Source of the DNA: Psammoneis japonica
Lineage: Eukaryota
Reading direction: 5' to 3'
Length of the DNA: 64,000 nucleotides
Assembly: GCA_008632985.1 (NCBI GenBank)
Contig: QPGO01000055.1
Location: forward strand, 1-64,000
Shown: positions 5,132-64,000 of the stretch, one piece after another
Numbering within the stretch: position 1 is the stretch's first letter
Layout: every line of letters starts with the position of its first letter
Notes under the pieces: model-generated
Databases searched by the model: none
Seen by the model: the letters and a program-made list of their open reading frames with translations, nothing else
What the model was told of the DNA's origin: nothing
Position numbers and translations under genes: made by a program

Positions 5132-5796
5132 AGTCGAAATTTCAGTAGGGAGTCGTTATGAAATAGCGGTGTTTCTATATTACGTATAGTGTCCAACGTT
5201 ACTTCGACTAAATGATTTTTTTGCAGCGGTGTCGAAGAACTCATTCCTTTACGTTCTACTGTAGCTTGCCGCAGTCCCAACTAACGCTCCGAACTATCAC
5301 ACCTGAAAATCACGCTTTGAACTCACTTTCCGATTCACTCTCGCGATCGATCTCGGAACTCACGGAATTCATTCGCTCCCATCATTCGTCAATCTTCGAA
5401 GTAACGCTCCGAATCCCAATCTGGCAACTTATGCTCCTATCTCAATATCGACTCACGCTGAGAACTCGCTTGTCTCACAATTCACACGTCTCGGGATCTA
5501 CTCATTATTGCTCTCCCAAATCAGAGCGGAAAAAGTTATGCGTACCGGTAGTAGTCAAAACGAAACAGCTTTACATTGCCGCTACAGAACAACTAGAGAG
5601 CGCACGCACGTTTGAAAAATGTACACATTACTTATACCCATGAAATTATCAGATGGTGCATCGAAAAGGATGCACTGTGCGTATTCAAAATGAAAAGGCG
5701 ATTCATTGCCGCCACTGATTTCACTACTATAAAAAGTAGAGGGCACACACGCGTGCCAAAAACAGTCCCCCCTCACCCCGTTACACCGACGGGCAC

Positions 5797-15985: not shown

Positions 15986-16049
15986 TTGAGAAAGGTTGCT
16001 TGGTTGTTGGATCAATGAGATTGTCAGAGTTTGTCAGTGCAATTGCATG

Positions 16050-16560
16050 ATCCAGCATTGCCTTGGACTCAACAGTCATGTCCACATGAGCAACCTTCCA
16101 GTTGCTTGTCTCTCCTTTGATGGTTGACTGCTTGAGAACTTTCCTGAGTTTGCAATGCTTGAGAACATGGCCACCCTTCACTCAGCAGGATTTCTTTGTT
16201 GTCTGACCACCAATCTGGATGTGGGAAAGAAGGGTCAGAGCAGCCGACAGCTTTTCCTGACAATGTTGTTGGCACAAACCACTTCTGCCAAATGTGGAAC
16301 ATGGTGAAGGCATGGCTTGTGGCAAAGGTCAGGAAGTGCTGTGGACTCCACGGGCAGCTCCCATTTTGTGCACACAAAGAAATTCTTCTTTTTTGCTCAT
16401 GTGGTGGTGACACTCTTCAGCTTTTGACCGACAACTTCCAACCCAAATCTGTCAGCAAAATGTTTGATTGATTCAAAACCAGGACATTGGCCAAAAGAAA
16501 AAGAAGAGGGGTGGGGATCAACTTTGTCTTGGAAAGAGGCACACTGGTTCAGCACCATGG
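16050..16560 (-). pseudogene. Degraded ORF fragment, inverted paralog of 17200-17740
   Basis: MVLNQCASFQDKVDPHPSS..KHFADRFGLEVVGQKLKS and CHKPCLHHVPHLAEVVCANNIVRK align with the + strand copy. Confidence 0.6.
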
Positions 16561-17199
16561 TCAGCCATTGGGGCAGTGGTGTGAAAGACTTGGTCATGCA
16601 GAAATGTGCAGAGCTTGACAGTGTGTCATTGCCAGGCACAAGTTGGTGCACTGCTGTGAACATCAGAGGCCGCAATGTTGTGGTGTTCACTTCTCTTTTT
16701 CTGATTTATGACATTTGACGTAATGCAAGTTTGGCTTTTTTTGTTTTTGCATTTGGGGGTTGTTTGGCCAGTGCATCATTTGAGCGTTTTGCAGCATCCC
16801 TTCTCACCAATGTTTTTCATTCATTTTTCTCAATCAATCCAAGTGTGCCTTTGTTTTGATTTCAAAACTTTTTGCTTTGATGACATTGCTGCATTTCTTT
16901 TGATGCATTGTCTTTGAAAGTGGTTTTCAATGCCTCAACCCCATGCACGTGCCGCTGCAACAGCTGGTGTCCCCTCCACACCAAAGTCACTCCCCATGCA
17001 CACTTGCCTCATTGTTTCCTCCAGCACTTCCAGAACTTCAGTGCATGGCTCTCTTCTTGGTTTTTAGCACATGTTCTGCAGGCACAATTTTCTGCGCATT
17101 TCACAACAGTGCATCCTCTCCCCAAAATGCATTTGACCAGAGCATGCACTGTTGTGATTCACGCGCGTTCTGTGTGAATCAACACATCTGACTTCCAGC

Positions 17200-19400
17200 C
17201 ATGGCGGTCAATGACTTTGCCCCATCCCACAAGGAAGTCGACCCCAACCCTTCCTTCCAATTTCCTGATGAGTGTGATGTTGATGAAACAGAACATTTTG
17301 CCAATGGCTTTGGAGCAGAGTTGTTTGGACCAAAGCCCAAAAGTGCACAACTTCAATGCGTGCATCCAAAAAGCAGTTTTGGAGACAACAAATTGGTCCC
17401 CCTCTCCAGAATTCCTTGCTCTTCCCTTCCTTTGTCACAAGCCAAAGTTGCGTCACATCCCACATGTTGCAGAAGCCATCCGCACCAACAACATTGTCAG
17501 GAAAACTCTTGGATGCTGTGACATTTGGTCCTGCATCATGACTTTTGGTTGGCCCATGAAAAAATCCTGTGTGCTGAAAGGTGAGCATGTTCTTTGTCAT
17601 CAAAATTTGGAGGAACAAGCTCTCTGTTTCTCCAAAGCACCTGGAGAGACAGAAAAAGAAGAGGAGCACCACATGCAACTTCGCCACAATGTCAATGCAA
17701 AGGCAGAATTTGTGCATTGCCGGCAACGACCCAAATGACCCTGCATCTGGCCAGCCTTGTTTCCATTTTTGCAGTGCAAAAGTCTCCAAGATCTGATCAA
17801 TGGCCAAGCACATGACCTTCACGGTGCACACTTTGTCACCAAAATCATCATGCGTTGTGTCCAGCACAAATCCAAGGACATGGACTGTTGGTTCATGCAG
17901 ATTTTTTGCCGTGTCAATGCCCAAAAGGAGTGGCGCATGTTTGTCAATGGCTTTCTTGCAACACGCAATTCCAATGAACCCGGTTCCCAGGAGGATGAGA
18001 TCAAGGGGTTCCCTGGAGACAAAATCAGCAACGTTGAGAACTCTGTGACATTGGCGGGCAATTCCCTTGCCCGTTGTCAGGCTTGTGAAGAAAAAATCAA
18101 TTCCATGTTGAATCATGAATTTGGGAAGTGCTGTCCCAAGGAGCAACCTGACATGCAACCCAGGCACAGCAAGCAGCTCACAATGCTTCATTGCAGAATG
18201 TGTGATCAAAGGGCTGACCACATGGATGACGATGACAAATGAGACCACAAATCCAAAACCAAAACACAAAATCAGGAGGATCCGCAAAGATGGCACCTGC
18301 TTGCATGATGGCAAGTGCCCCCCCCCCTTTGCCTTTGCTGCCTGCATGCATCTGTTGCCTCATGCATCCTTTCCCCCCCTGACTTCACATGCCCCACCAG
18401 AGCCTTCCTTGACCATCCCCAACAAGAAAGCCAAGAGCATCATGCTCTGACCCCGCATCTCCTTCAGCATCTTGTGATGCTGTGATGTCATCTGGGGAGG
18501 CCCGCCACACTCTCACTGCCAATGTTCCCACCTTGTCAGAAATTGCGGATCTGCCAAAAGCTTCTTCTCCTTCCAAAGGTCCTCCCTCCAAATGGCACCC
18601 CTCTTGGGCAGGTGTTTCCACAATTGCCCAGTTGTTTTGTCTCCTGCCCCAGCCAACGACATGTCATGGCTGGACAAGTCCACCATCCACCAGTGCTTTG
18701 ACCCATCCCAGTGTCAATCTGTTGCCTCAGAGGAAGTTGCTGCCCATCTGCCACACCTGCACATCATTGACAAGGCCACTGATGCCGAGCGTGTGCTGCA
18801 TCATTCTGCTGCCAACTTTTACCTTGCAAACAACTTGAGGGAAAACTGGCACATGTTTTCCAACAAAACCAACTCAAGCAATCCCGCCACCGCCTTCCGT
18901 GTCCAAGCTGAGCACCCTCCTCACCTGGATCACTGCCCTGCTCAGATGAACTGTCCGTCACCTGACAAGCAAATGCTCTGTGAGCCCGGCTCTGCCAAAT
19001 CAGCCAAACCCAAGGCCACACATGGTCTTGATGTTTTCAATCCTGGCAAAAACTTCAATGCAAGTGAGTCATCCAAAATCAAGGCCATGATGGCAGACAT
19101 TCTTGACTCAACCCAGCTGTGAAAAAACAAGATCAAGCTGCAAAACTCAGCAATCCGCTGCCATTCAACTGGTCTCTTGGTCATGAGGAGCACTTGAAAG
19201 TTTTGTGCAAGGAATTGGGTTGTCTGTGCCATGAAGCTGGCAGATTCATGTGAGCGCCAAGTCACACACAACACTCCCTGCAGGTTGTGGTGGTGGTGCA
19301 ACAAATTGGAGTTCTTCAAATTGACGCCAAGGATGGCAAGCTGTTGGACATTGGATGTCATCAAGAGAATGAACCTTGGTGAGGATTGCAAGTGTGACTG
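17200..19400 (+). pseudogene. Degraded, frameshifted long ORF of unknown function inside the island
   Basis: Successive protein-like frames (MAVNDFAPSHKEVDPNPS; CHKPKLRHIPHVAEAIRTNNIVRK; LINGQAHDLHGAHFVTK). Confidence 0.45.
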
Positions 19401-20563
19401 AAAAGAAAAGAAGGAGAGATGATGGTGCAGACATGAGCACAAGGAGAGCTTAGAAAGGATCCATCATGAACATGTCGAGCAATTTGTTGGCTGTGTTTGT
19501 GAGGCGACAAATGCGTTTGATTGCGTGACTGATTGCTCTCACAACGGGAGGTGTGCAGCAATTTTGTCGTTGCACATTTGGAGGAAGATGCCATGGAAGA
19601 AGTGGACTGGAATTCGAAGTTGGTGTGCCAAGTCCAGAAACAGGCTTGGAATGACAGTTTGCACCCAAAGTTGAGGATGGATCATCTAGATGAGGCATTT
19701 TTTTAATTAGCTCGTGATTTTGCAATTTCCCCGCACTTCGCCCGTGTTGTTTTGCAATGCCTCTGAGCACCGCCAAACACATGTGACTGTGTCCAGCCCC
19801 CATCAGGGCTGTTAGATCTGTGTGTGAACTACACATTTCAACCTTCAAATGCCAATTGTCGCATTCGGCGCAGTTGTTGCATGTGACAAACTGCCATTTT
19901 TCGCCAAAATCGCACTGCTTGTGGGAGACAAGCCACAATGACTTTCCAGGAAAAGCCGATGATTGGCGTTTGACTGGCTGCAGACACATCTGCAGTCGTT
20001 GAGCTAAAGATCGCGCATGGTCACAACCATCGCAAACACATTCTATGATGTCTTTCGAAGGGACAAAGTTCGACCTGTCGCTGAAAATATTTTGTTGGTG
20101 AGCGCGCGCATCCAGTGCAAGAAATCCGGGTTTTTTCCAAAAAAATGCGAGCTCGCGCGCAAACAGACCTCATCTCGACGATCCATCCTCAAAGCCTTTG
20201 CAGGCACCAATCTTCATGTGTGTGTCTGCATCAGTTATGAAGATGAAAGACAACAACAAAATTCAACATTGACTTCATCATTGATGGTTGCAATGGCTGT
20301 TTAAACTGAACATTTGATCACCAAAATTGTCGCAAACACACTCAAGGATGGGGCGCTCAATGGGGAACTTGCACGTTGCCAATTTTGACCATTCTGAAAA
20401 GGTGTGGTGGTTAAAATGTAGAAGCATTGGGAGGAGTGTCACATGTTGAGTGTCAAGACAGAGGTTTGAAAATTTTGCAACGGCAGTCTTCCTCTGACGA
20501 CCTGTTGCACAGTGTGATCACAACAACTGTGAGCAGCTGCAACAGTGCATTGAGACAAACGCA

Positions 20564-21729
20564 ATGGCAAGGAGGAAGGCAGTGAAGGACAGGATGATGG
20601 CAGAGGCACCACCAAACAGCCTGACAGCAGCCTTGCAGTGGGCGGGTGCAGCAGGAGATCACCAATCTCTAAAGAGAGAGGTGGAAGAGGTGGCACGGAG
20701 AGAGCCATTCCCAAAAACGAAATTCCTTGTGAAGGCAGACATGGCAAGTGGTGGCAAGGTGTCATGGCCAGTGTGGAAAAACACAGTCAATGGCAAGTTC
20801 AGTGAGTGCAAATGGGCAGAGGGTTGTGGGAGGACTGGGCAAACAAATGCGTGCTCAATGCAGTCATTGCAAAAAAGAAATGCCGTGTGTCAGTCAACAA
20901 TGAAGAGTGCGATGAGCAGCAAGTGCTGTGGGGTGCATTTCCAAAGTGGGATTGGGTGTGGTGCTGCTGACAAGATTCTCATTTTGCTGCAGCTGTGATG
21001 ACAAAAGAACAAGCAGGAATCTGCGGAAGCAAGAAACCAGCAAAGAGAGCCAAAAAAGCAAGAAGAGCAAAAAGGCCCAAGCGGACAATGAAGAACAGAT
21101 TCTGGCAACTTGGGAGGATAAGACAGCTGATGCCATTGTGTCTGAGAAGCGGACAAACAAGGAGGCACATGCATGGTTCTGTGACAACATCCTGAAATTC
21201 ACAAAGAGCGCTGCAATGCAGGGAAGGATGGTGGAGTGCAGCAGCACCAAGGCCACAGATCCAGCCGCGGTGAGCAACGAGGCACTGGTGCTGTTGATGT
21301 TGGAAAACTGCTGGAAGGTTTGGGAGCACAAGACCACACAGGAAGGAAAGGACAAAGGGAGCGAAGAGGAGGAAGAGAAAGCAGAACTGGTGCCCTTTGT
21401 GCACAGCCCCAACACAGCATGAATCTTGGAATGACTGAGGTGTGCTGCGATTCAACACCCTCCTTGGGGAGGTCAAGGAGGACAGGGCAAGTGATGCGGG
21501 TGTGCATTTTGACATGTGGCACACCAACGGAAAGAAAAGGGAGAGCAAAGGTGAAGGAAAAAAGGGCAGAACCAGTGAAAAACCAGTGGAGACAGAGATG
21601 AGAACACAAGCAACAACAGAACTTTCCAGTGACAATGAGGAGGACTGTGATGCAATGGACAAACCTGGCAACAGAAAAGATGAGGAGGAAGATGTAGAGA
21701 GCAAAGAAGACAGCAACAACGGCAAATGA
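20564..21729 (+). pseudogene. Degraded ORF with VSNEALVLLMLENCWKVWE motif and acidic tail; probable accessory ORF of a DNA transposon
   Basis: The motif resembles the SDEA(F/L)xLLxLENxW..W motif of diatom repeat-associated ORFs (from memory, not searched); frameshifted. Confidence 0.4.
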
Positions 21730-22849
21730 GGAACAACTCCATCAGCACAGGCCAGTTGAAAATGCAACACGGCTGACACCATGGCATTGGCTTGGAGTTC
21801 ATTTGTCATCCATGTGAAAAAGCAAAAGCAACAAATCATTGTTGATTGAGGAAAGCAGTGCAAATTCATTGCACAGATCACATCAAATGTAAAATCAACA
21901 TGTGACGTGAGACAAACAATTGACATTGATTGTCAGCTTCTGCAGCAAAGGAGAAGTGCACACACACAGATGGGAAAAAGGGGTGCTGTTTGAAAGTCAA
22001 TGTTGATTTCTTGCAGTTAAAAAGAGGGCTCTACAGCAAAAATGATGGACTTTGACAGATGAAGAATTGTTGCCATCTGCACAACTGACAAGGTTTGAAG
22101 CTGCAAAAATGTTGTCCATGAAAGGAACAAAAATCGCTGTGAGAAGGGGGGTGTCAATCACCACACAATGCACGCTCTGATGAAGTGCACTCAAAACCTT
22201 GTGAATGGAAAGAATGTGGTGGGGGGCAGCTCAAACAAAAAAGGATGGAAGATGTGAGGTGGGGCAAAGAGAAAGCAAGGAAACACCATGCGCTGACATG
22301 TTGGATGGCAGGCTGCACAGAAAATGACACTGAGATGTGTGCAACAAGGTGACAGATCACATTGTGACACCAGGTGTGACATGGATTGCATGTGAATGAG
22401 GGCACAGCTCTTGGGCAGAACAACAAAGTGCGCCATCAACACCAAGAAGTTTGTGGTTGTTGAAGCAAAGACATTGCAAGCAACTGGGAAAATTGTGCTC
22501 ATTTGAGCAAAGTTGCAGATCAACACAAATGTGAAAAAAACATTGTGAGAAAAGAAACAAGACAAAGCAGATTTGCACGGAAAGCAGCAGATTGACATGG
22601 CAAGCCACCTGTCTTGTCATCAAAGAGAAAGTTTTAAAAGTTGGCACAGATGTGCAACTCAAAAGAGCTGGTTTAATCTGCTTGAGTTTGGGACAACATG
22701 GGTTGCAATTTCAGCCCCATTGGAGCTGTTTGTTGGAATGTCAGTGTCAAATTCAAAAGTTTCAAAATCAAGAAGCGCTGCATGGTTTCTTGCAAGGAGT
22801 GACAGCACATGATGTGAATGTGTTCACAAAATGACCACATGATGCCAGG

Positions 22850-23980
22850 TGTGAGTTTTGCAAAAATGCGCTGAATCTCGCTCTTTTCACATTCAAAAAT
22901 GCAAGCAACCATGTTTTTTGACAGCAACAGGCAGCCCAAGTGCAGCAAAAAACCCACATCCAAGCACACAGGAGTCAAAAGCAGTTGCTGTTGAGATTGC
23001 CGCAGCAATGCTGGAAACAGCTTCTTTGTCCCTTGTTTTTTCATCACTTGATTCATCGACTCAACGCACGGCTTGGATCAGAGCTCAACTCAGCCACAAG
23101 GACTCAGCTTGGTTTTCTGCTGCTGCTGGCATCATTGCATTTGTTTTTCTGCCATGCTCTCCAGCACCAGCACCAGCACCAGTGCCAGCACCAGCACCAG
23201 CAAAAAATTGAGCTGAGCCCTCATTTTTGCCCCATGTTTAGTGGCCATTTTTCTCATGCTCGCTGAAGTGGTCTCATTGATTTTTTGCTGCCACTTGGTG
23301 ATGGTTGGTTGTCAAGTTGGCTTGGGGTTGGCTTGGCCCAGCTTCAAAAGTTGTGCCTTTTTTGCACAATGCCCCAGTTTGCCCCCCCCCCCCCCCCCCC
23401 TTTGCAGATTTCTGCTTGTCAAGCACCAACAGAAACTCAACACAGCGTCTCAGAGTCCATGACCAATGCACATCAAGCAGCAGCACCACCCGACAAGAAA
23501 GCACCAGCGTGGTTCATAGGATGGCATCTTGTCAGAAGAAGAAAAGTGCCTTTGCTGCAGCACATGATGCATCAGCGCACTTTGCGCCAGATGCGCCGAT
23601 GTGGTTTTTGAGGCCACACACAGCTCTTTTGTTTGGAGGCAATCAGTGCCAAATCATTCAACAAAAGTTTCAAGATCAAGAAGCATCATGCAGTTTTGTG
23701 TGAGGAGCGACAGTGTGCGATGTTTGTGTGTTGACAAAATGATTGCATGCATCTTGCAAGCACGTGCTGAATCTCACTTTCACACTCAAAAATGTTGGCA
23801 ACCATGTTTGACAGCAATGGGTGGCCCGAGCGTGATGTGGCACCCAAGTCCAAGCACACGCCAGTTGCCGTTCTTGAAGATTGTCGCAGCAACAAAAACA
23901 GTTTGATGATCCCTTGGTTTTTTCATCATTTTGTCGATCGACTCAACATGTGTGGGTCAGATGAGGACTCAATTCAGCCA
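22850..23980 (+). repeat. Two diverged ~240-bp direct repeats (~22850-23095 and ~23745-23980)
   Basis: Shared gctgaatctc..ttcaca..tcaaaaatg..gcaaccatgttt..acagcaa..tccaagcacac..tttttcatca..atcgactcaac. Confidence 0.75.
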
Positions 23981-24149
23981 TTTAATGTCCAGTCCCCCCA
24001 AAAATAAAATGATGGAGAGAAATTTGTGTTCAAGCCCTCTTGCTGCCGGCAACAATCTGTCATTTCCATGCAAACAAAGTCAATGCTGTAGATTTTAATT
24101 TGAACATGGTGACTCTGGAGTGGCACTTTGACTCTGCAATGTCCTTCCT

Positions 24150-26295
24150 CATGTCAACAGCAAAAACAATGTTGCCAACTCCACTTGCTTCACTCCTCAC
24201 AATTTGCTCGACTTGTTTTTTTTGCAAGACCCCGAACAACATGAAGCTCTCTTCTCTCCCCCTCTTTGCCTTCCTTGGATTGGTTGCCATTGCGCAAGCC
24301 TCAGGTGTTGATTGCGATCGGTTGACACCTTTGCATGTTTGAAACTCCAATTGCAAATTTCACTCACTGTCTGTTCCTTGCTGCATCGCGTGATGACTGC
24401 AGGCATCTCGACAGGCATTGTCCTCACTGATGACGGCACAGTGAAGGAAAGGGACGTGGTCATGGCAAGCAAGATCGCCCCATCAAGGACAAACCGACGA
24501 CTCCTGCAAAGAAAATGCTCAGGACTGGCAAACCCGACGACCGGCCGGTGGAGAAGGAGGAACGCAAGAAGCCAGACAATGAGCCCACCAGGACCAGGAC
24601 TGGCCATGCGGAAAAGGAGGAATGCAAGTTGGAATGCAAAAAGGACAAGGAAGAGCGCGAGTCGGAACGTGAAAAGGACATTGAGGAACGTGATGCGGAG
24701 CGTGAAAAGGACAAGGAGGAACGCGAGTCGGAACGTGAAAAGGACAAGGAAGAGCACGAGTCGGAACACAAAAAGGACATTGAGGAACACAATGCGGAGT
24801 GTGAAAAGAACAAAGAGGAGTGCGAGGTGGAGCGTGAGAAGGAGAAGGAAGAGCGCGAGTCGGAATGCGAAAAGGATGCAGACGAACGCGATGCGGAGTG
24901 TGCAAAGGACAAGGAGGAGCGCGGTGCGGAGCATGAAAAAAGGAGAAGGAAGAGCGCGAGGCCAAACATGAAAAGACACAGAGGAGCACAGGTCAGAACG
25001 CAAAAAGGACAAAGAGGAACGCAAGGGGGAACTCGAGAAGGACAAAGATGAGCGAGAAAAGTCAGACAATGAGCCCACCAAGAAACGTGCAAGGAAAAAT
25101 GAGCCTGAAGGGGGCAGGCCCACATGCACCAAGGAAGAAAGGATGCAGCGCAAATGTTGCAGATGCAAGAAGGAGGGATGTTTCCATGGAAACACAGATG
25201 ACAAGTGCGCAGCTTGCAAGACATGTTAAAATGACCTTGCGCGTGTGCACCGGCAACAATCATTTGGAGTTTTGTTGCCGGATTCATCGCGTCACTGCAC
25301 ATTTTGTCAACTGACAATGTGGCTGCAGCAACCAACAATGCCAGAGATCTGGTTGCTGTGTTCCATTGGTTGTCCTCTACATGACAAAGATGGCCATGTG
25401 TCTTGTGTGCGTGCCAAAGTCAAGTGCATTGGCAGCATCATTCTGCACTCACACGGTGTTGCGTTCCTCACTTGCACCTCATTTCTGGCTTCAGCTGTCT
25501 CATCATTTCCCCTGGCAGCGTTGATTGTTGCAGTTGTCACTTGGAAAAACTGTGGCAAAACATGCATGGCTCGCGCTTTCTTGGGCTACAGTGTCGACAA
25601 CAGCCTTGCTGTGCAGCCGAGACGAGGCTCTCATTTGAGCTGCTGTTGGCAATCAATTTGCATTGGACAGCAGAGCAGCCGCCCTTCCCGACAGTGCTTG
25701 TCCCACTTCTGTGTCATGATGCCATCTGGACTTTTTCTTTTTCAGCTTGTTGCTGTGCGAGGTAAAGTTGAGAACAAGCAGTGTGCACCCAAGAGAAGGC
25801 ACAAAGACGCAGGCAGCAACGCTTGCAGGTCGTGGCAGCACCAAGTCGGCAACATTTTTTCGGCAAGCAACAAGAGGATCCAAAACGAAACGTCCAGAGT
25901 TCGACTTCCCGCATGATTCTTCTTGGCAATTTCCTCAGCCTGTGCTTGGCCGCCGACACGGCACTTGCCGTCAAGTCATCGAGATTGTAAAGAACTTGAC
26001 ATGACACAGCTTGGGTTGAGGTGGACCGCGTTTTTTCTTTTGCTTCCATCTGAATGGATGATTCTTCTTCTGCGCATCGTAGAACTGGGTGGTGTTGCGA
26101 CCCACAATTTGCCACGTTCATGAGAGAGTGTGGTTCTCTCGAGGCATGTGGCAACCAAAGAATTGTGTGCCGTGTGCTTCGCGCCAAAAAGCACACCTGG
26201 TGTCAGTCGCCGTGGCTTTTGTCGAGAGACCCACCCTTTAGAGTGGTTTCAGCATCCCCTCTAGCACTTAGATGACAAGGACTCCTTGGGTACAA
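24150..26295 (+). repeat. Copy 2 of the ~2.1-kb diverged direct duplication
   Basis: Collinear with 13850-15985 through to gagacccac..tagagtg..cagcatcccc. Confidence 0.85.
24241..25100 (+). pseudogene. Secreted protein with 11-aa E/K repeats, copy 2 (frameshifted)
   Basis: MKLSSLPLFAFLGLVAIAQAS, intron 24305-24402, frameshift before the EKDKEERESER repeats (~24610-24940). Confidence 0.6.
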
Positions 26296-26603
26296 TAAGA
26301 GTACAACAGACGAGTTTCAGCTCAACATCACTGTCGCTTGTTGCCATCATGGCTCGTTTTGTGAAGTTGAACTCCTTCCACCTTACGTAGCGCCAAAAAA
26401 AGAATAAAGACACCGCTGGAACACGGAATCCAACCAGTTTTGGCGCGCTCAGCAACAGATGTCGCAGAATTGTCTGATATACATCCACACATAAATGTAT
26501 TCCTCATCTTTTGCCAACAATGACGAGCGAAGCACACTGAAGTGAAGGATCGCACCCCGTTATTTATCAGTTTGCTGTTTTGCTGTTGAAGAGAAAGTCC
26601 TCT

Positions 26604-33530: not shown

Positions 33531-34340
33531 CGTGTTCTTCGTTGTTTGTCTGATAGAAATAATCCGGACACTGCGATGTTTTTTCTCTCTCTTACGATCG
33601 TTTGGTTTCGCTCTGGAATGATAAGAAAGTACAATATGTAGTAGGACTGAGAATAGAACAACGAATTGCTCGTGGCCAGGGTTACGGTAGATAAGAGGCA
33701 CTCCCGGTCCCGGCGGCCAAGAGGATGTTGCATGTTGTGGTTGGGTATCCAGGTAGGTGCCCTGCCTTTCATTTTTCACGACGTCGCAGCATGCTGGCAC
33801 TATGCAGCATAGTAGACAGTGCTGCTAGCCCAGCTCGGGCAAAAAATCGAACCACTCACAATGGCTCGCCACTTGTGCAGAGCGTGAAACTCGCCGCTGA
33901 CAAAATGAGGCAGTGCTCGCACATCAATGTCCTGTCAACAGAGGCAAAAAGCCATCATTCTTAAATGTGTTTTATCATGTCGTGTGTGGGGAATGCTCTG
34001 TTGACGCGTTCCAGCCCTAGGTGGGACTCCGTGTGACATTGGGCCCGTAGAATTCTACGTGCGAGCTCCGTAGTATGAGAATTTAATTAATGGATATATT
34101 TATCTTCAACATCAAATAAACGCCCAAGTTTGTGGTACAATTATGCCTCTTACCACTCGACGTTTTTGCAACTTCGCCTGCCCTACGCGATTCTTAAGAC
34201 ATTATAGAATCGCGCTGTAACAAAAAATGTCAAAAGTTGTTGGACGGATCGCTCAATAAGTGTACCGTAAAATGACACAAAATATCGAAAAAATCACGTA
34301 GAAATCTACGTGCGCGACATACGACGAGACTCAAAAAACN

Positions 34341-35810
34341 AGCCACTGCTGGTGGTGCCATGGTTCTTGTTGAAGGCGAGGTGATTTTCTCACCCCACAG
34401 CGCAGAGCAGCACCAGAAAAAAAATGTTGAGCCACTTGTTTTTTGAACCAGCAACTCAATGTCACCACAAGGGAATCCCTGCAAGGCTTCCTGTGCTGCT
34501 CCTCCTCGCGCTTTTTGCCTTGGAGTGAGGCTGATGATGCTTGCAGCGGCTCTGTGGGTTGCGCCAAGAGAAAAGTTTGTTCTTCTTGTTGACACAAACT
34601 TCAAACTCACAGTGAACAGACACCCAGCAGCACCAATTCAACAAAATCACAAGAACCAAATGACTCACTCTAAGAGTGACGTGAGAGCAGAGACATGAGA
34701 GAGATTGGCGAGATGACGAAATTTCAACTGCAAAGAGTTGCCAAATCTTCCGAGTCAGGAGCAACAACAATGTCATCTTTTCAACACATCCTGGCTCTTT
34801 GAATTTCCCATGTGCTGGATGTTCCAACACACTCCTGCCACTCACATCATCAATGTTCTGCTTGTCAGACAAGTTTGCATGGTGTGGAAGGCAGGTTGCT
34901 CCCTCCAGTGTGCACGTGGTGATCGAATTGGCACATCAGGCTTGCCTGTCTCCCCATGTGCAACACACATCCCATGCTCCACAAGGTGCTTTTTGCACAG
35001 TGTTGTGGTGCAAAGCGTGTGTGCAACGTCAACATGCCAGGCCCACAGCTCCAAGCAGCGACCCCTGGCTCATGTGCTGCAGTGCAAATCAAGGTGGGGG
35101 AGCTCTCCCTGAGCAGCAACACATGCACCCACCCTTGTGGTGACAGACTGCAACACTGCTGCACACCACACCACACACAGCCAAGCTGGCAAGTTGGGGC
35201 AGCTGCCTGTTGCCACATCATTGCCCGAAAAATGAGCGGCGCTTCTTGCAGAAAAGTTCAAGCTGCTGGAGGAGTGCGGGGGTTTTCCACAGTGAAATCA
35301 AGGGTGGCCTTGGCAGAAAATGACAGTGATGTGGGTTCTGGCTGGTGCTCTCAGAGTGGCGCATTGGAGAAAAGCTCTCTTCTGTGCGAGTGCAGCTGGC
35401 TTGTGCGACCTCCAAGAATCCTCAAGAGCTTCCCAAAAGAGCTGTTGTTTTGATTCCCAGTTTGTTGTGCATGTTTTGAGACAGTCACATTGGGCTGGTG
35501 CTTGAGTGACTCTTCAACTTGAGAGAGAGAGACAGAGAGAGACAAAGCGAGCACAGGGCCTCAACCACCTTGCAACAGCCAGCAGAAATGTGGGCAACAA
35601 AAGGTTCCAACAGAGGAGTTGCTCAGGAGGGAACCTTGCTCAACCATTTTGCAATGCCCCCCTGTGGTTTGCAGCATCTGCAGTCGCAAATTGGGCCCTT
35701 TTTTCCCATGCAAGTTTAGAACATGACGAAGAGCCGCAGCGGTTGTGTGTGGCATGCCGCGCACCTGTCTGTGTGCCTGATCTCGTGCCCGCTCGACCAC
35801 AAAAAAATGG
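34341..35810. mobile_element. Second TpA-depleted degenerate repeat-like island, starting at an assembly N (34340)
   Basis: Very few TA, excess TG/CA, Tyr-free spurious ORFs; TA returns abruptly after ~35820. Confidence 0.6.
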
Positions 35811-56117: not shown

Positions 56118-56347
56118 AAATTTTTCGCAGGTTGAAGGGTTTCGATCGACCTACAGACGATGGCGGGAAACAAGTCTTATCTCTATCTATTTTAGATACT
56201 CTAGAATTGATGGCAATGGCGCAGCGCCGGCAACTGGCATAGCTTCTAACTGCCACGACATTGAAGAGTACTGGAGCAACGTGTTGGTCTGTATCTTTCT
56301 ACATCGTACGAGTACTGTGCAACCTCTGTGGTGTGTGGTGTGAGGCC

Positions 56348-57526
56348 ATGCGATTTGGAAGACATTCTTTGGCAGCTCTTTGTTGGGCTACTGCAAGTCG
56401 AGGCTTTGCGTCGTCTCAATTCATTTCCGTCGCAGCAGCCAGGAGTACATCTACTCGTACTGCGTTTCTAGCATCTCATCATCGACGTCATTTAGTAAAC
56501 AAAAGCAGATTTGTTGGTAAAAGAAACATGTCATCAGAATCAACAACTGCTGTGACAGAGGCGTCTAAATCCAGAATTGCTCTGTTGCAATTCAAAGTCA
56601 CGTCCGATAAGGAAACCAATCACAAGACGGCTTCATCTTATATCAAACGCGCAGTCGATTCTGGTGCCAAAATGGTGGTACTTCCTGAAATTTGGAATTC
56701 GCCGTATGCCACGAGTGCCTTTGGAGATTACGCCGAAGTTCTCAGTCAAGACTCGCTTGTGGACGCTCCTTCGGCCCAATTGCTTGTCGACTTGGCCATG
56801 CTGCATAATATTTGGATTGTTGGTGGAAGCATACCAGAAATCGATAATGAAAAACTATACAATACCTGTCTTGTCATTTCACCCGAGGGAAGCATTGTAG
56901 CTAAGCATCGCAAAATTCACCTTTTTGATGTCAATGTTCCCGGCGGCATTCAATTTCGTGAATCAGATACGCTAGATGCTGGAAGCTCAGTAACATGTTT
57001 TGACAGTGGAGACGACTTTGGTATGGTGGGCGTCGGCATATGGTAAGCTACATTCGTACAGCTGCATCACCTATGGTTCCTTTTAGTGTTTATGTGGATA
57101 CCTCATGAGCTGATTCCGCTTTGCAGCTACGACATTCGTTTTCCAGAGTATGCCATGATTCTCGCTCAAGAGCACAAGTGCAAGCTACTGATTTACCCTG
57201 GTGCCTTTAACTTGACCACTGGGCCTGCCCATTGGGAGTTGCTGATCCGAGCACGTGCCGTCGACAACCAGTGCTTTGTTGTCATGGCGTCTCCGGCTCG
57301 ATCCGACCCACCAAAGGAGGCCGGGAAGTATCCTCATTATACAGCATGGGGACATTCGACTGTTTGCGCACCATGGGGTGATGTTGTTGCAACGACAGAC
57401 GAGAAGGAAAGTCTGGTGGTAACTGACTTGAACTTTGATCTTGTGGAGGAAATGCGACAGGCTATTCCGTGTGGCAATCAGAAGCGTCATGATTTGTACA
57501 AGGTACAAGAAGTTAAGGAATCGTAG
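56348..57526 (+). CDS. NIT2: Omega-amidase NIT2 (carbon-nitrogen hydrolase) with organellar presequence
   Basis: LPEIWNSPY, HRKIHLFD, GICYDIRFPE (across intron 57043-57126), FNLTTGPAHWELL.RARAVDNQ. Confidence 0.92.
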
Positions 57527-57603: not shown

Positions 57604-58677
57604 CTATAGAGCATCGGCGTCTCCCTGCTGGCGATACCGTTCCACTGCTCGCTCGTAATTTCTTTGCAGTCCATCGCGCAAATGCTTCATAAAGAGTAGT
57701 CCCAGCACCATGTAGATACAACCGACAACAACCATGAGCCACGAGGTCACCTTGATGAAGAGGGGCGCCCATGCGATATGGAATTCATCAAATGCCTCGC
57801 TACCACCAGTCTTGGTAAATGCGTAACAATCACCTCGTAGGCTTCCTCCATCCCGATCAAGCCCACGAACGAATAGATAAATCCACGAGTAAAGAAGTTT
57901 TGAAAGAAATCAGAGTTCTGTATGAATCCCACTTTCACGTCGAATTCAACCAGGAGAAAATCAAACAAAACAGTGACACATAGGCACTGAAAGGGGTTGT
58001 GAGTTTGCGTGCAATGGGAAATGGGTTTGTCAGCGCAAAAAAAAAAAAAGCCGACAAAAATGATTTATAACGCGGAATACCTTACCGTAGAGCCAGTTGA
58101 AGAACACCAATTTGATCCAGAGGTACTAAAAAGAGAGGAAGAAGTTGTGTGGCTAGCAAACCTAGACAGGCAACGATTGCCAGCATTTGAACAAGAGTGA
58201 AGAAATGAAGACAGCAATTCTTTCGTGGGGCACGAGCAACATCTGACTTCTTTTTTCTCTTTGTTTTCTTCTTCTTTTTGGGCTTATCTTGATGCCACTC
58301 TTTGCCATGTTTGACATTTTTGTCGTCCTTGTCGTTGAGGCCATTCTCCTCTTCCTCCTCAGAAACCGCACCATAACTATTTGCTTTCGGCTCGTCATTG
58401 TCCTGATCACCACCGTCTTGCAAGGATACTGCTCCAGTCCCAAATAGAGGTGCCGCTTCGTCGTCCTGGTCGCTGCTACGTGGTTAAAGTGAGAAGCGAA
58501 GGAAATGCAAAAATACTCCGTGAGAAAGATACAAATCGTATACATTTGGATCTTTTGCGTCTTTCTTTATGAGTCAAAAACTAGCAGCTTTAGAAATTTG
58601 AATACTCACGTTGCGACTTTGCCCTCTTCAAGCCATGTAGGCGATGCTTCTTCTTTATCGTCTCCTTTCTTCGCCAT
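57604..58677 (-). CDS. COPI-associated/TVP15-like four-TM membrane protein; apparent single-base frameshifts near 57960 and 57825
   Basis: MAKKGDDKEE start, TM segments, RGFIYSFVGLIG and VVGCIYMVLGLL motifs; GT-AG introns. Confidence 0.7.
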
Positions 58678-59449
58678 TGTTGCCAGCTTTCTTTTTTATT
58701 TCATCGCCGAAAAGAAAAAAAACCAGGCCTGCGGGGAGCATTGACCACTTGTCTTTCTTTGTGGGTGTGGGTGTATGTGTGCCGTTACGTTGCATGCTGT
58801 ATTGCCTGTACGTACTTAGGGCCCTACCGCCGGGCGGGGCCGGTATTGTGGCGGCTGAGTAAGTGGCGTGGCCACCGCACCGGTGACGCGGATGACCGTT
58901 ATATTTGATGTCTCATGCCATTTTTGGGGCTGTAGCGAGGTGCACGGACACTCTTTTTTTCCAATTTATCGCCATAATAGCGCATCGCACAAACTCACTT
59001 ATTGTTCGATATGTTTTCCCCAATATGACTTTTTCGTGTAGAATTCACGATAAATTATCTTTGTTTATAACTGAATACATTTTTGAACATGCCACGCCGG
59101 CAATCCCAATTTTTCAGAACTTTCGAGCTCTCCTGAAAAACCGTGCCACGTACCCGTCGTAGGGAATTTATCGATTTTTTAGGATGTCCCCACAACCTCT
59201 CATGTCCTCAATGATCATTCTACGAATCCGAAGAACTCATCTGCACTAAACAACCCATACCCTTTCAAAATCCAAGGGACACACTTTCAAATTCAGACGG
59301 ACAACCCCACTGCCCGACTGCCCGACTGCCCGACCCCCTGACTGCCGGACCGACACGAAAAAGTCTGCAATCACCAACCACTTTTAGCAGCGCAGGGGGG
59401 AGGACAGACGCACCCACCTCCCAACCCACGCAGCCTTGAACGACCTGAA

Positions 59450-61611
59450 TGCCAACGGCATTCTTTGCAACTTGTCGCCACCTGTCGAGGCCGCAGCAGC
59501 AGTTGCAAACTTTTGACGAAGGGAGCGACATGCACCAACCCTTGTTCGGCTGTGGCTGCCACCCCTCCTGCAGCCGCCGGTGGAGCACCGCCGGCACCCC
59601 CAAAAACATGCCATGACAAGTGGATGAGCCAAGGAGATCAGTTGGGTGGGGAGTGTGCGAATTTATTTCGCCGGTGCGACACCACCGTCGCTGCTCCCGA
59701 GCCGGCCGCCACGCCACTCGAGCACATCATCGACTTGAGCGACTTGGTGCCAAAAGCCTTTTTGGCTCTAGCACGGCAAGGCGCAGGTTGTCGTGTCACC
59801 TGCATCCACCGGCCCTCAGTTTGTGTCAGAGACCCGGTGGAGACCTCGCCGTGGGACGGTCGTGTGTTTTGTTTTCAAGGAGACATCCTCCCCGGTAACT
59901 TCATTGCCATTCTTGAGATGCCCAACACTCCGTTCGACATCGTGGGGCCGCAGGTGGTGCCTGCGGTGGCTGACATGGCCACCCTAGAAGGTGTCTTGGC
60001 GGACGAGAACGATCCAATGCCGCCTCAGACCGACGGCGCCCCGGATGCCAACACGATCTACGTCCGTCATCTCGTGCAAGTGCCCCGCGCATGTCTGCAT
60101 CTTGTGTTGACTCGGGATCTCACCCCGCTGCAAGCATGGCACAAACTGGCCGGAGCGATTCAAAATGACGGATGCGCGGGGGACTTGAGCCCTCTCATCG
60201 ACTGGCTGCGTGCGGCCCTCACTGCCGACACTGCAGCGAATCCCGATCCGGTTCATTGCCTGGGCAACCGTGCCACTGCGTTGCCGCCACTCGCGGTGGA
60301 CGCCAGATTGCAGGAGCATCGTTGGCATGCGTTGTTGCAAGACCTGCCCGCCTTGGACACAATGGCCGTCGACAACACCGACCGGGTGCTCGCCTTTGCC
60401 AACGCAGTGCGTGTCGCGGCCGCGGCCTCAGCTCCAAAAATGCCGGCTGAAGCCTTCCCTCAAACTGCACCCTTGTGGCTCTTGCTCTCAAGCGCACCGG
60501 ATGATGCAGCCCTGCCTGCGCTGCACCACGCTTGGGCCAACAGCACCAAGGCCGAGCGGCGCCTGTGCTTTGCTCACGCCTTGGAAGCCCGTGCCCAAGA
60601 ACCCGATGCTGCGTCTCGCACAGCACCTGCAGTTTCAAAGGAGTTACACGAGATGGTGTTGCAAGGAAAGGCAGCACCCCACGTGCACCAAGTGAACGAC
60701 TTGACCGCCGGCGTCTCCCCGTTTGCTTGTGGTTTCTTTCTCGCCGGCCAAGGCTCTGCCGCACAAGTTCGGGCCGAACGCTGTGACCTGGCATTAGCGG
60801 GCAACTTGACGCCCACCGTTGCAGAGCAAGAAGAGTTCCGGACCAAGGACACACCTCTGCCCTCGTCCACCTGCCATTGTGGGAGCATGCTCCAAGCTGC
60901 CAGCTTGGTCTTGGACGTCATCCAAGGGTCGAATCATCCCCATGCAGTGGCGTTCCTGCAGCTCTGCTTGGAAGACTGGCGGGACATGGTCGACTTGCTC
61001 GAGCAATCAGGAGCGTTGCTGGCTGAAGGAAACGCACTCCCCCGCATTTGTCGTGAGGTGCAGACACTCATGGGGGTTTGTCTCCGCAGGCTCATGCAAG
61101 GCGGCATGCCCCGAGCGCCCGATTACACGGCGGTGGCGTGCAAGGTCTTGCACGGGCAATTCTCCCTGTTGGCACAATTGCCCCATCATTTGCTCGGCCA
61201 GCCAGACCAGGCGACTAACCCCCAGGTGAGCTCGACCAGCGCCAGCAACAGTGGCACCCCTTCCACAGCAGCTGCCGCGGCTGGGCGTCGCGACCCTGGT
61301 GCAGCTGTTGCGAACCCCAACCCGGTGCGATCGTGGCCAACTGCCTTCGCACAGGCCAGGATTGCCTGGCCACGGTGCGACGTTTCGCGCCTCGAACCAC
61401 AGACTCGAGTGGTGCCGCGTGCGAGGTGTGCCTGTCGCACCACCTCAAAGGAACGTGCTTTGCCAACTGTGAGTGCAGTGGTGCGCACCGAAACCTCTCG
61501 CTGCGAGAGAGGACGGCTGTGAGCACCTTCGTTCGCGACCACGTGTCCAACCCCCAGGAAGGTGGCGCCCCAGCGCCGGCACCCACGCCGGCACCGGCGG
61601 CATCCACCTGA
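59450..61611 (+). pseudogene. gag-like ORF1 of the YR retrotransposon (frameshifted)
   Basis: Long Ala/Pro-rich ORF ending, after a frameshift, in CLSHHLKGTCFANCECSGAH. Confidence 0.7.
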
Positions 61612-61662
61612 GGACGGGGGCCGGCTGGCCCCAGAGCCAGCCTGCAGCCCTCCTCTGCTTGC

Positions 61663-63720
61663 TTGCCAGATCCGCATCAGCAGCACCCACGCAGCAACGA
61701 ACTAGGTGAGTTAGCAGAGGAACATGTTAAACTCCTGCACACTTTAGGCTGGAGCCAGTTCGTTGCACACCTGTGCAGGGAGCCGTGTCTGGCTGAGAAT
61801 GTTCAGCAGTTACCCCATCCTGCTGCCAAGCTTCTTTCTAGTCTCCGTAACGACGGAGCTCCGGCACAGTTCTCAACGGAGGACTGGACATCGGACCAGG
61901 TCCGGATGGCCACCGAACGCGGTAGGCCATCCATCCACCAACGAGTGCCTGGGCTTCCTCGAGTCGGACATGGCGGACATGATCCAGAAGCGACACTGGA
62001 CAGTCTTGCCGTACCGCGAAGCCTGCAAGCTGCCCCACCTGCGCGTCTCACCAATGGGCGTGGTGCCGCAACGCGACCGCCGCCCGCACACCATCGTGGA
62101 TTACAGTTTCTACGGTGTCAACGACGAAACCGTGAAACATGCCCCTCCGGAAGCCATGCAATTCGGTCGCGCGCTTGACAGGTTCTTGTGCAATGTCTTC
62201 CGCACCAATCCGAAACACGGCCCAGTGCACATGCTGAAACTCGACCTCTCTGACGGTTTCTATCGCGTGGGGCTTCGCCCCCAGGACATGCCCAAGCTTG
62301 GGGTGGCCTTCCCAGCAGGCCCGGGCGAGGAACGCTCACAGCGCTACCTCTCGTCCTGCCCATGGGCTGGACGGAGAGTCCACCTTTCTTTTGTGTTGGA
62401 ACGGAGACTGCAATCGACTTGGCAAACAACCACGTGCCTGCAGCTTGGGACCCTCCGATTCATCCACTTGAACAAGCGGCAGCCACACCAGCACCCCATG
62501 ACGACACCTTGCGGATCGATGTGCCGCCGCCTTCTAATGCAGCCCCAGCTAGCCGCGTCTCACGCCTTCCTTCGCCCGCCGCTCTTCGTCGCAGACGCCA
62601 ACGCGGCTCCCAGCCATTGGAGTGCTTCGATGTCTACGCAGACGATGAGATGTGCGCGGCACAAGGTTCAAAAGCGCGTCTCAACAAGTTACGTCGTCGC
62701 CTCCTGCATGTCAATGACCAAGTCTTCCGTCCCAACACAACTGCCGATGCACACTGGCGCCGCGAAACTATCTCACTGAAGAAACTCCTCAAAGGAGACG
62801 CGTCGTGGTCAATGGTCAAGGTCATTTTGGGCTGGCTCATTGACACCCCAGCGGGTGCCATGCAATTGCTGCCGCATCGACGACAACGCCTCCTGGACAC
62901 ACTTGCCGACACCATCCCGCACCGCCGCGTGTCAAACAAGCATTGCCATAAACTCATTGGCGAAGCACGCAGCATGTTGTTGGCGGTTTCTGGCGGTGCC
63001 GGCCTGCTCTCCAATCTCCAGCACTCGCCAGCCACCTCAAGTGACTCCCGCACTCGGATCAACCGTCATGCGCGCCGTCAACTCCAAGACTTGCACGCCC
63101 TGGCCGTCGACATTGCTTCTCGTCCCACAAGGCTTGCCGAGCCATTCCCTGCCGCCGACGGGCACCACTGCGGTGCATGCGATGCCGCCAAGCCAGGTTT
63201 TGGTGGCGTGTTGTCACCAGGCCCCAGTGACGACTTCCCTCCTACAGCATGGCAAGTTCCGCTACCACCGGACCTGCAGGCCGCCATTGTTTCGGACGAC
63301 AACCCCGCTGGAACAATGACCAACTCCGATCTCGAGCTAGCCGGCACAGTGCTTCAAGAAGCCGTCGTCGGCATCGCCATCGATGTCAGGGAACGCACGG
63401 TCCACATGTGCTGTGACAACACCCCGGCCATCTCTCGGCGCGGAAAAGGCTCTGTCACCACCGACGGTCCCGGCGCCGACATGTTGCGGACCGGCAGTCT
63501 CCAACAACGAAAACTCCGACACATCTCCCGCTTCCATTGCATGCCTGGTCCAGCCAATCTCCTCGCCGACATGTGCTCCCGGAAATTCACCACACCCTCT
63601 CACCTCCTTGCAACTCTCACTCGCCTTGCTCCACAGACGAAACCTTGGCAAATGCTTCACCCGCGCCCGACATCGTTTCTTCACTGATCTCCGCCTTGCG
63701 ACGGCAAAGGCCCGCGAAGC
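61663..63720 (+). pseudogene. Reverse transcriptase-RNase H (frameshifted)
   Basis: SPMGVVPQRDRRP..IVDYS, KLDLSDGFYR, MGWTESPPFFC, YADD, CDAAKPGFGG, NSDLELAG, CDNTPA, GPANLLAD. Confidence 0.9.
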
Positions 63721-64000
63721 TGTCACTGCTGAGCGAGCCCGTGCCACGGACACCGTCTGGGCCAAGTGCTGGTTGCCTTTCTTGTCCGACATCGGAATCG
63801 ACAACCCTCTCCTCACCAGCGTCCAAGACAAAATCCCAATGCTCTGAGTCTTTGCCCATCGCCTTGGGGATGGATGCCTCAGCCGCAGCGGTGACCCAAT
63901 CTCAGCTCCGCATGTTCGTGACGAAGTCCTTCACGTCGCGGAGACGTTCACCGAACTGGGTGCCCCGGACCCGCGTCCAATGCCACACGGCATGATGGAC
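63660..64000 (+). pseudogene. Tyrosine recombinase N-terminal region (premature TGA at 63845-63847)
   Basis: W..FL..IGIDNPLL...L*VFAHRL.DG.LSRSG.PI...V......VAETFTELGAPDPR, typical of the N-terminal part of YR-element recombinases. Confidence 0.7.

Follow-up and report, generated by a model that had tools for sequence, protein, structure and literature searches.

Why should a retrotransposon copy be nearly devoid of the dinucleotide TA while it remains rich in CG? The question is raised by positions 59260–64000 of a 64,000-nucleotide stretch of the Psammoneis japonica genome (contig QPGO01000055.1 of assembly GCA_008632985.1, positions 1 to 64,000 of the forward strand), which as a whole is called the window here. 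The original prediction for this locus described a tyrosine recombinase (YR) retrotransposon with TA loss but no CG loss and with codon scars in its catalytic motifs. About four fifths of the element's TA has been lost to TG or CA, and CG is largely kept. We consider it probable that the locus is a dead copy of a multi-copy, DIRS-order-like retrotransposon, and that a mutational process which the genome directs at repeats has left it short of TA.

Dinucleotide counts give only 32 TA in the 4741 bases of 59260–64000, an observed/expected ratio (O/E) of 0.18–0.20 at a G+C content of 61.1%. CG occurs 389 times (O/E 0.89), and TG and CA reach O/E values of 1.49 and 1.33. The whole window has a G+C content of about 47%, and TA O/E is about 0.5–0.77 in its ordinary 2-kb stretches, with about 0.6 typical of host sequence, where TA is likewise the rarest dinucleotide relative to expectation. 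The description of the element as CG-rich yet TA-poor is therefore borne out, and so, exactly, is its predicted start at 59260: the final densely spaced TA lies at 59258, and those that follow are at 59385 and 59664. The longest TA-free runs in the element measure 663, 586 and 487 bases; in the host parts none is longer than 276. To set expectations within coding sequence, base composition was fixed per codon position in the first open reading frame (ORF1) and in three pieces of ORF2 (see below). Under this null model 30 TA are observed against 150.1 expected, CG is 332 against 373.1, TG is 317 against 215.5, and CA is 362 against 268.2; the surpluses of TG (+101) and CA (+94) offset the deficits of TA and CG. 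TA is depleted in each of the three codon phases. Two host ORFs, treated in the same way, hold 35 TA against 58.7 expected and 16 against 26.4. Codon-position composition, codon usage and G+C content are ruled out by this null model as the cause of the TA deficit (30 against 150), and a deficit far beyond chance is confirmed.

Other copies of the element were judged from one public sequencing run that contains 64% of the sampled words of the stretch; runs X2 and X3 contain next to nothing of it, which is not evidence of absence. In total, 1319 contig pieces were placed on the stretch at a likeness of at least 80%. Single near-identical contigs have a depth of about 53–61 and the summed depth over the element body is 350–1100, from which we estimate roughly ten to twenty copies, depth being a poor measure of copy number. 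Changes private to the window copy were taken as the 40 best-supported of 1105 variable places at which nearly all other contigs disagree with the window, with the majority taken as ancestral. Among these 40 changes, 20 are CG>TG/CA and six are TA>TG/CA (at 60672, 61737, 61865, 62849, 62857 and 62966; four give CA and two give TG), with seven other T>C or A>G changes, five other C>T or G>A changes and two transversions. A new TA arises in only one of the 40 and a new CG in one, in favour of the polarity set by the majority rule.

Per site, six of about 37 TA have changed compared with 20 of about 410 CG (Fisher p = 0.014), a TA rate about three times that of CG. Among these best 40 of 1105 places, TA conversion is thus faster per site than CpG decay, as had been proposed; it may also act earlier and by a distinct mechanism. 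The dependence on TA context also holds: A and T bases within TA changed in six of 74 cases and those elsewhere in six of 1778 (odds ratio 26, p = 2.5e-6). For C and G the figures are 20 of 818 within CG and five of 2077 elsewhere (odds ratio 10, p = 1e-7). CpG decay, recognised as CG>TG/CA beyond other transitions, therefore operates in the window copy and leaves the TA loss unexplained. The claim that CG had escaped loss does not stand in detail, since CG>TG/CA makes up half of the private changes and outnumbers the TA losses. Private changes of both kinds fall on conserved residues of the encoded protein. TA losses affect a Thr found in 56 of 60 homologues (62857) and a Leu found in 57 of 60 (62965), and CG changes at residues at least 90% conserved are R>H at 62087, A>T at 62204, T>M at 62812, P>L at 62869 and R>Q at 63253.

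Insertions and deletions were taken from the best 12 of 23. At 61923/61924 one base fewer is found in other copies (depth 59.4 and 68.7 of 161.5), behind 62332 four other contigs have an extra C (depth 200.7 of 264.1), and behind 63663 six other contigs have an extra C (depth 283.5 of 431.8). Three frameshifts of the window copy are therefore missing from many other copies.

Within ORF2, for a 441-residue ORF at 62362–63687, 8000 candidates were scored and 231 of them are homologues at E ≤ 0.001, with identities of 54–56% for the best; an exhaustive search gave 2560 representatives at E ≤ 0.001. Of the best 120 of these 231 homologues, one is named (from the diatom Epithemia clementina) and seven have a precomputed RVT_1 match. 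RVT_1 also matches 10 of the 30 members of alignment A1 (best E 6.4e-5), and the A1 profile matches HIV-1 reverse transcriptase (RT) with E 0.0017. Across 60 homologues, the window motifs DLSDGFY, LPMGWTESPP and YADD fall at the columns D/G/F/Y, LPMGW and Y/F-V-D-D, and the element has an RT with motifs A, B and C (YxDD). A common layout was found in 80 related metagenome loci: ORF1 of about 700 residues, ORF2 of about 830–1150, and ORF3 of about 395–400 residues that overlaps the end of ORF2. The structure modelled for ORF3 of one relative, L019 (predicted local distance difference test, pLDDT, 73.7; predicted template modelling score, pTM, 0.59), matches Cre recombinase in Foldseek (E 7.5e-8), as well as Xer and Tn1549 integrases. 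The sequence profile of ORF3 found no recombinase among solved structures and returned noise only (a cytochrome P450, E 0.37). On the strength of the fold match, the element carries a tyrosine recombinase instead of a DDE integrase; the window covers only the N-terminus of ORF3, and the catalytic C-terminal half lies beyond it. Neither an integrase nor a protease domain was detected. The RT matches, the three-ORF layout and the Cre-like fold together uphold the name YR retrotransposon.

Pfam searches gave no match for the window ORFs at E up to 10, the ORF1 and ORF2 pieces included, nor, with E values allowed up to 0.1, for six ORFs that are intact in relatives. Self-comparison of the window found no second copy of the element, and no terminal repeat pair was found within 58500–64000; the 3' end of the element lies past the window. 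Two ORF2 matches, L001 and L002, lie on one 11,852-base metagenome contig, both with 49% identity; they may represent copies of a single element that lie side by side or one within the other.

The TA-poor, CG-rich body of the copy (59260–64000, forward strand, as are all its parts) runs to the window end, and ORFs of relatives match it only at 59606–61563 and 61615–64000. It begins with short tandem repeats at 59262–59350, a 22-mer present 1.9 times and the 8-mer CCCGACTG present 5.8 times, where depth is still high. The gag-like ORF1 occupies 59531–61348 in its main frame (open frame 59465–61522, first in-frame ATG at 59531), and ORF1 of relatives (about 700 residues) matches 59606–61348 in tblastn with E values from 2e-95 to 5e-100. 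After a frameshift near 61350, the C-terminal part of ORF1 follows in another frame at 61366–61611 (ORF 61333–61611), where ORF1 of L001 and L017 continues; this part has a Cys/His knuckle-like motif that includes CLSHHLKG (61429–61452). ORF2 is read as a single ORF in the homologues, whereas the window needs four frames for it. The first piece (61687–61923), matched in tblastn by P0001–P0012, covers the N-terminal region and ends at a frameshift at about 61924–61927. The second (61928–62335), placed by tblastn and homologue alignment, holds the RT fingers and motif A, DLSDGFY (62243–62263), and ends at a frameshift at about 62332–62337. The third (62338–63687, with the stop of its frame at 63685–63687) holds motif B, LPMGWTESPP (62356–62385), motif C, YADD (62635–62646), and the conserved blocks TNSDLELAG (63319–63345) and PGxAN..AD..SR (63544–63582), both of which may belong to an RNase H. 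A frameshift near 63663 leads into a continuation in a third frame (63660–63998), which matches residues 656–759 of P0001 at 50% identity and overlaps ORF3. The N-terminal third of ORF3, the tyrosine recombinase gene, lies at 63644–64000 (tblastn with ORF3 of relatives, E 9e-31 for L001), contains an in-frame TGA at 63845–63847 and continues past the window end. The window copy thus has four frameshifts, three in ORF2 and one in ORF1.

The effect of TA loss on the proteins was examined by aligning the window pieces with 60 of 120 homologues (the first 60 of at least 550 residues). Of 308 columns with a conservation of 60% or more, 63 have a different residue in the window, and nine of these 63 replacements (14.3%) are of the type expected from TA loss (Y>H/C, I>M/T, V>A, L>P/S). 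Left out one at a time, the 60 homologues have a mean of 0.73 such replacements (Poisson tail 8e-8), and their fraction reaches 9.1% at most in a single homologue. The count of such replacements that the original prediction had called for therefore reveals a clear enrichment. Seven of the nine have the codon expected of a TA ancestor (GCA, ATG three times, ACA, CCA and CAC), and two have other codons, GCC at 62021 and CCG at 63661. The CG-type replacement class is not enriched (four in the window, a homologue mean of 3.27). Sorted by product, six scars are of the TG type and eight of the CA type. Tyr makes up 0.76% of ORF2, whereas the 120 homologues average 1.99% and none has less than 1.02%; the share of Cys and Met is higher and that of Ile lower. 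Of ten conserved Tyr columns, four still have Tyr in the window, four have His or Cys, one has Asp and one has Ala.

The individual motifs that had been read as scars fare unequally. YADD is well explained as a former YVDD, with Val in 56 of 60 homologues, Ala in none and GCA as the window codon. MTNSDLELAG and FHCMPGPAN also have good support. The Met of MTNSDLELAG (63316) aligns with Ile in 42, Leu in nine, Val in nine and Met in none of the 60 homologues, and in FHCMPGPAN the Cys column (63538) has Tyr in 34, His in 23 and Cys in none, while the Met column (63541) has Ile in 40 and Met in none. Support for KHGPVHM is moderate: 28 of 54 homologues have Tyr, but His is natural in nine. CLSHHLKG is plausible, its first His (CAC) aligning with Tyr, Trp, Phe and Trp in four aligned relatives, and MPKLGV is weak, with Ile in 17 homologues but Ala in 23 and Met in two. 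None of the 60 homologues has the window residue at YADD, 63316, 63538 and 63541; His, however, occurs in homologues at three Tyr columns (in nine, nine and 23). The stop at 63845 is indeed an in-frame TGA in the ORF3 frame, but its supposed origin from a CGA (Arg) codon is unproven, as four of five aligned relatives and six of seven rows of alignment A2 have Gln. By the genetic code, TA>TG/CA is unable to make an in-frame stop. The proposal that elements are inactivated by missense change rather than by stops agrees with the TA-type missense excess and is incomplete, given that four frameshifts and CpG decay also damage this copy.

TA poverty is not a trait of the element family as such. The 80 related metagenome loci have a median TA O/E of 0.62 (range 0.35–1.02), a CG O/E of 0.91 and a G+C content of 55%, and most have long open ORFs. 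One of them, L058, on a microbial-mat metagenome contig (501–6000), has the same signature as the window element: its G+C content is 56–61% between flanks of 40–47%, with TA O/E 0.13–0.38 and CG O/E 0.8–0.96. Its ORF2 is uninterrupted over 927 residues and contains no Tyr at all. The ten conserved Tyr columns, that of YVDD among them, are occupied by Cys (TGC) five times, His (CAC) twice, and Ala, Thr and Phe. At codon positions 1–2 of this ORF no TA is found against 37.6 expected. An ORF2 without Tyr, even in YVDD, makes selection for function impossible as the cause. Among 127 representative homologues of at least 300 residues, two have at most 0.25% Tyr, with Cys and His raised. The ORF2 homologues P0328, P0272 and P0329 have 0–0.7% Tyr and raised Cys and His and, judged from this composition, might represent additional cases of TA stripping in elements of other hosts.

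The element is also not the only TA-poor part of the window. Positions 9001–26000 contain 60 TA in 17 kb, with TA-free runs of up to 1755 bases, at a G+C content of only 45–50% and with plentiful AA, TT and AT. CG O/E within this block ranges from 0 (9–13 kb) to about 1.1 (14.5–15 kb and 24.5–25 kb). The absence of TAA and TAG stops there results in long spurious ORFs in many frames. A single TA-free run of 1046 bases lies at 34671–35717, in a block (34320–35717) with a CG O/E of about 0.3; the only N of the window (34340) is near this block. Over all TA-poor blocks of the window, CG O/E lies anywhere between 0 and 1.1, and no CG-poor block has normal TA. The ORFs of the element's relatives match neither the 9–26 kb nor the 34.7–35.7 kb block, and Pfam searches of 57 ORFs from the TA-free blocks gave one sub-threshold chance match (TMEM51, 17.2 bits where the cut-off is 25.5). 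For one ORF of the 17-kb block (383 residues, 17208–18359, reverse strand), no homologue turned up in a word-indexed protein search.

Within the 17-kb block, a pair of direct repeats at 13901–15991 and 24138–26300 (2.1–2.2 kb, 80% identical) could represent the long terminal repeats of a 12-kb element. Their alignment contains 29 dinucleotides with TG against CA, and the three analogous double transitions occur five, four and two times. These mismatches look like the expected trace of ancestral CG or TA that decayed separately in the two members. Under a simple independence model, CG decay alone explains about 11 of the 29. The two members hold internal tandem repeats of about 100–130 bases (14318–14734 and 24610–25057).

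The TA that remains is not distributed evenly over sequence contexts. Relative to 12 ordinary relatives, L058 retains CTAG at 1.47 and CTAA/TTAG at 1.0, while ATAA, ATAC, ATAT and GTAC are at 0, so that nearly all of its remaining TA lies within CTA or TAG. In the window element CTAG is likewise kept best (0.67), and ATAC and ATAT are gone. In the 9–26 kb block, TA is least frequent before T. Retention of CTA and TAG could reflect protection by the flanking C or G; it could equally reflect fresh TA that arose by C>T at CAG or CTG.

Taken together, these results are best accounted for by A:T>G:C transitions at 5'-TA-3' steps on either strand, which would turn TA into TG or CA alongside the ordinary decay of CG to TG or CA. 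The balance of TG and CA products between the strands argues for a process on double-stranded DNA and against editing of one strand of an RNA or complementary DNA (cDNA), and the process would accordingly act on DNA rather than RNA. Enzyme-driven mutation, rather than selection or a general GC bias, is favoured by the confinement to repeats, the abrupt boundaries, the context rule and the fact that catalytic residues have been lost; such an enzyme may be aimed at repeats or silenced chromatin. Because A:T pairs are changed, cytosine deamination is excluded as the chemistry. Candidate reactions would be the deamination of an adenine with a 5' T, or the oxidation of thymine, the product of which would pair with G. 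The source copies of the family may already have lost most tolerable TA under this pressure before the window copy was made.

Several observations weigh against this account. One is the repeat immediately upstream of the element, at 58800–59258 (no strand assigned; contigs are placed from 58800 on). It has a depth of about 10,000, roughly 10-fold deeper than the body, and yet its TA is normal, with 29 TA and 30 CG in 460 bases; none of its 29 TA is among the 40 private changes, compared with six of 37 in the body (p = 0.03). The mutational process does not, then, act alike on all repeated DNA, and simple dependence on copy number is disfavoured. Moreover, the homologues that serve as consensus are only 36–56% identical to the window, the private-change counts are a sample of the best 40 of 1105 places, and their polarity is the contig majority of one run that is possibly the window's own source sample. 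Only six TA losses are demonstrably private, and none of them is a scar listed in the original prediction; those scars are absent from the 40 best-supported places and may be older than the copy and shared by the family, or simply below the table cut. A TA-rich state of the family ancestor is not demonstrated, and the other TA-free blocks lack a recognisable coding remnant from which an ancestral state could be read. Finally, four of the ten conserved Tyr codons remain, including the two most important, namely the one in YxDD and that at 62261 (where 56 of 57 homologues have Tyr), which is the pattern expected from selection in an active lineage.

The upstream repeat may be non-coding DNA from the end of the element, or else a separate high-copy repeat next to it. 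Depth is still 4,460–5,260 at 59339–59480. Several contigs lack 56–98 bases near the CCCGACTG repeats, and in one contig 59382 is followed by 59093, as if copies of about 290 bases stood in tandem. The 58.8–59.3 kb repeat has no further copy in the window by self-comparison. Behind 58959, a consensus of loose contig ends, read by eye, differs from the window at seven of 29 letters (TA>TG at two, CG>TG at three, other changes at two), so converted copies of this repeat exist elsewhere. One may speculate that the edge at 59259 reflects a link to the transcription or silencing of the element body. Further upstream, 56261–57526 holds a host omega-amidase gene (NIT2-like, CN hydrolase) in two ORFs, probably with an intron between them; its best named matches are from diatoms, with up to 62% identity, which marks the genome as diatom-like, and the protein collection has no close named relative.

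The retained Tyr codons bear on the view that avoidance of TA (UpA in RNA) was selected and inherited in an active lineage, through RNA stability, escape from UA-cutting nucleases or codon usage, with the odd residues as tolerated variants. It draws further on the small number of private TA losses, on the possibility that the listed scars are family-shared, and on the natural occurrence of His at three Tyr columns. We regard it as unlikely. Relatives in other hosts are not TA-poor (median 0.62), and the blocks of the window with neither a match to the relatives' ORFs nor a Pfam domain are even more TA-free than the element. Two of the private TA losses hit nearly invariant Thr and Leu residues (62857 and 62965), the window residues at YADD, 63316, 63538 and 63541 occur in none of the 60 homologues, and L058 has lost even the catalytic Tyr.

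Changes could also have been made on the RNA or cDNA intermediate, by ADAR-like A-to-I editing or by deamination of first-strand cDNA, and fixed with each round of retrotransposition. The element does replicate through RNA, and A>G with a 5' T has the neighbour that ADARs prefer. We nevertheless consider this origin distinctly improbable. Editing confined to the transcribed strand predicts a single coding-strand product, whereas both products are found in similar numbers among the surpluses (TG +101, CA +94), the scars (six and eight) and the private changes (two and four). ADARs favour a 3' G, but TA before G is the best preserved here. The TA-free blocks at 9–26 kb and 34.7–35.7 kb, moreover, contain no retroelement coding remnant.

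A general weak-to-strong bias with no TA-specific step, such as GC-biased gene conversion or biased repair in repeats, would fit an element of 61% G+C in a host of 47%, and TA>TG/CA is always a weak-to-strong change. This is very improbable, in that A and T outside TA changed 26 times less often, the 9–26 kb block is TA-free at merely 45–50% G+C with AA, TT and AT plentiful, and CG>TG/CA proceeds simultaneously in the opposite direction. That modified bases were miscalled as TG or CA in sequencing or assembly is scarcely credible, even if repeats are the parts of a genome likeliest to carry such bases, as contigs of the public run reproduce the window almost letter-perfectly (four differences in a 544-base record and one in a 247-base record), L058 from a separate metagenome assembly has the same signature, and the changes show a gradation among contexts and fit together codon by codon.

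If the TA deficit is indeed the footprint of a mutational process on repeats, a more specific proposal can be put forward tentatively. Some diatoms may possess a dedicated repeat-directed DNA mutator, a repeat-induced point mutation (RIP) in reverse, which would convert TpA to TpG or CpA on either strand, spare CTA and TAG, and work faster per site than CpG decay. Such a mutator would erase Tyr, Ile and Val codons together with TAA and TAG stops, and killed elements would hence keep long open frames. It may be tied to transcription or silencing, with the promoter-side repeat upstream of 59259 being spared.

To our knowledge, the genome defences that mutate repeats (RIP, APOBEC-type editing and the decay of methylated CpG) all have cytosine as their target. 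If transposons alone underwent A:T>G:C changes specific to TpA, this would reach the same end through a different chemistry, and repeats would become richer in G+C rather than in A+T. With stop and Tyr codons removed, dead elements would mimic long intact ORFs and mislead gene callers. Homology would be blurred as well; the 17-kb TA-free block, for example, is recognised neither by Pfam nor, for one ORF, by the word-indexed protein search. For diatom biology, this would offer a new and testable link between silencing and mutation. Should selection on the elements be the cause instead, the avoidance of a dinucleotide would still be unusually strong for a eukaryotic mobile element. In full-text literature, with subscription journals outside the search, nothing was found that describes TA>TG/CA conversion in the transposons of algae, diatoms among them, the available parts of PMC9258296 and PMC2806351 included.

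Among known systems, the element itself resembles the DIRS order, which comprises the groups DIRS1, Ngaro, PAT and VIPER, in its three ORFs, of which ORF1 is gag-like, ORF2 bears the RT, and ORF3 encodes the tyrosine recombinase and begins before ORF2 ends. It differs in that Pfam is blind to the window pieces and to the intact relatives that were scanned. Terminal repeats of the DIRS order are either inverted with an internal complementary region or split direct repeats.

The general under-representation of TA and UpA in genomes and RNA viruses is shared by the host sequence, which is also low at about 0.6. The TA-poor blocks differ from it in their values of 0.0–0.2, in being limited to repeats and sharply bounded, and in that conserved and catalytic residues have been replaced. 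The decay of CpG through 5-methylcytosine affects a pyrimidine-purine step as well, ends in the same TG and CA, and is present in the window copy with its 20 private changes. The mutated pair in TA loss, by contrast, is A:T and not C:G, and the per-site rate is about three times higher. Like ADAR and APOBEC editing, the changes are transitions with a neighbour preference that scar retroelements, and A>G beside a 5' T recalls ADARs. Unlike such editing, both coding-strand products occur, TAG is spared, and blocks without a retroelement remnant are affected.

The closest parallel is RIP of Neurospora and other fungi, which shares with the process considered here transitions in a dinucleotide context on both strands, confinement to repeats with sharp edges, possible near saturation and heavy missense change. 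The very abundant neighbouring repeat (58800–59258) is spared here, unlike under RIP. A RIP-type C>T at CpA that creates TpA does not fit the element, where TA is depleted, TG and CA are in surplus, and six private TA>TG/CA changes stand against one that creates TA. RIP is described in the available parts of PMC3318451 and PMC7296669 as turning CpA into TpA, by which DNA becomes rich in A+T and in TA; in the window element the direction is the opposite, with TpA removed and G+C content raised.

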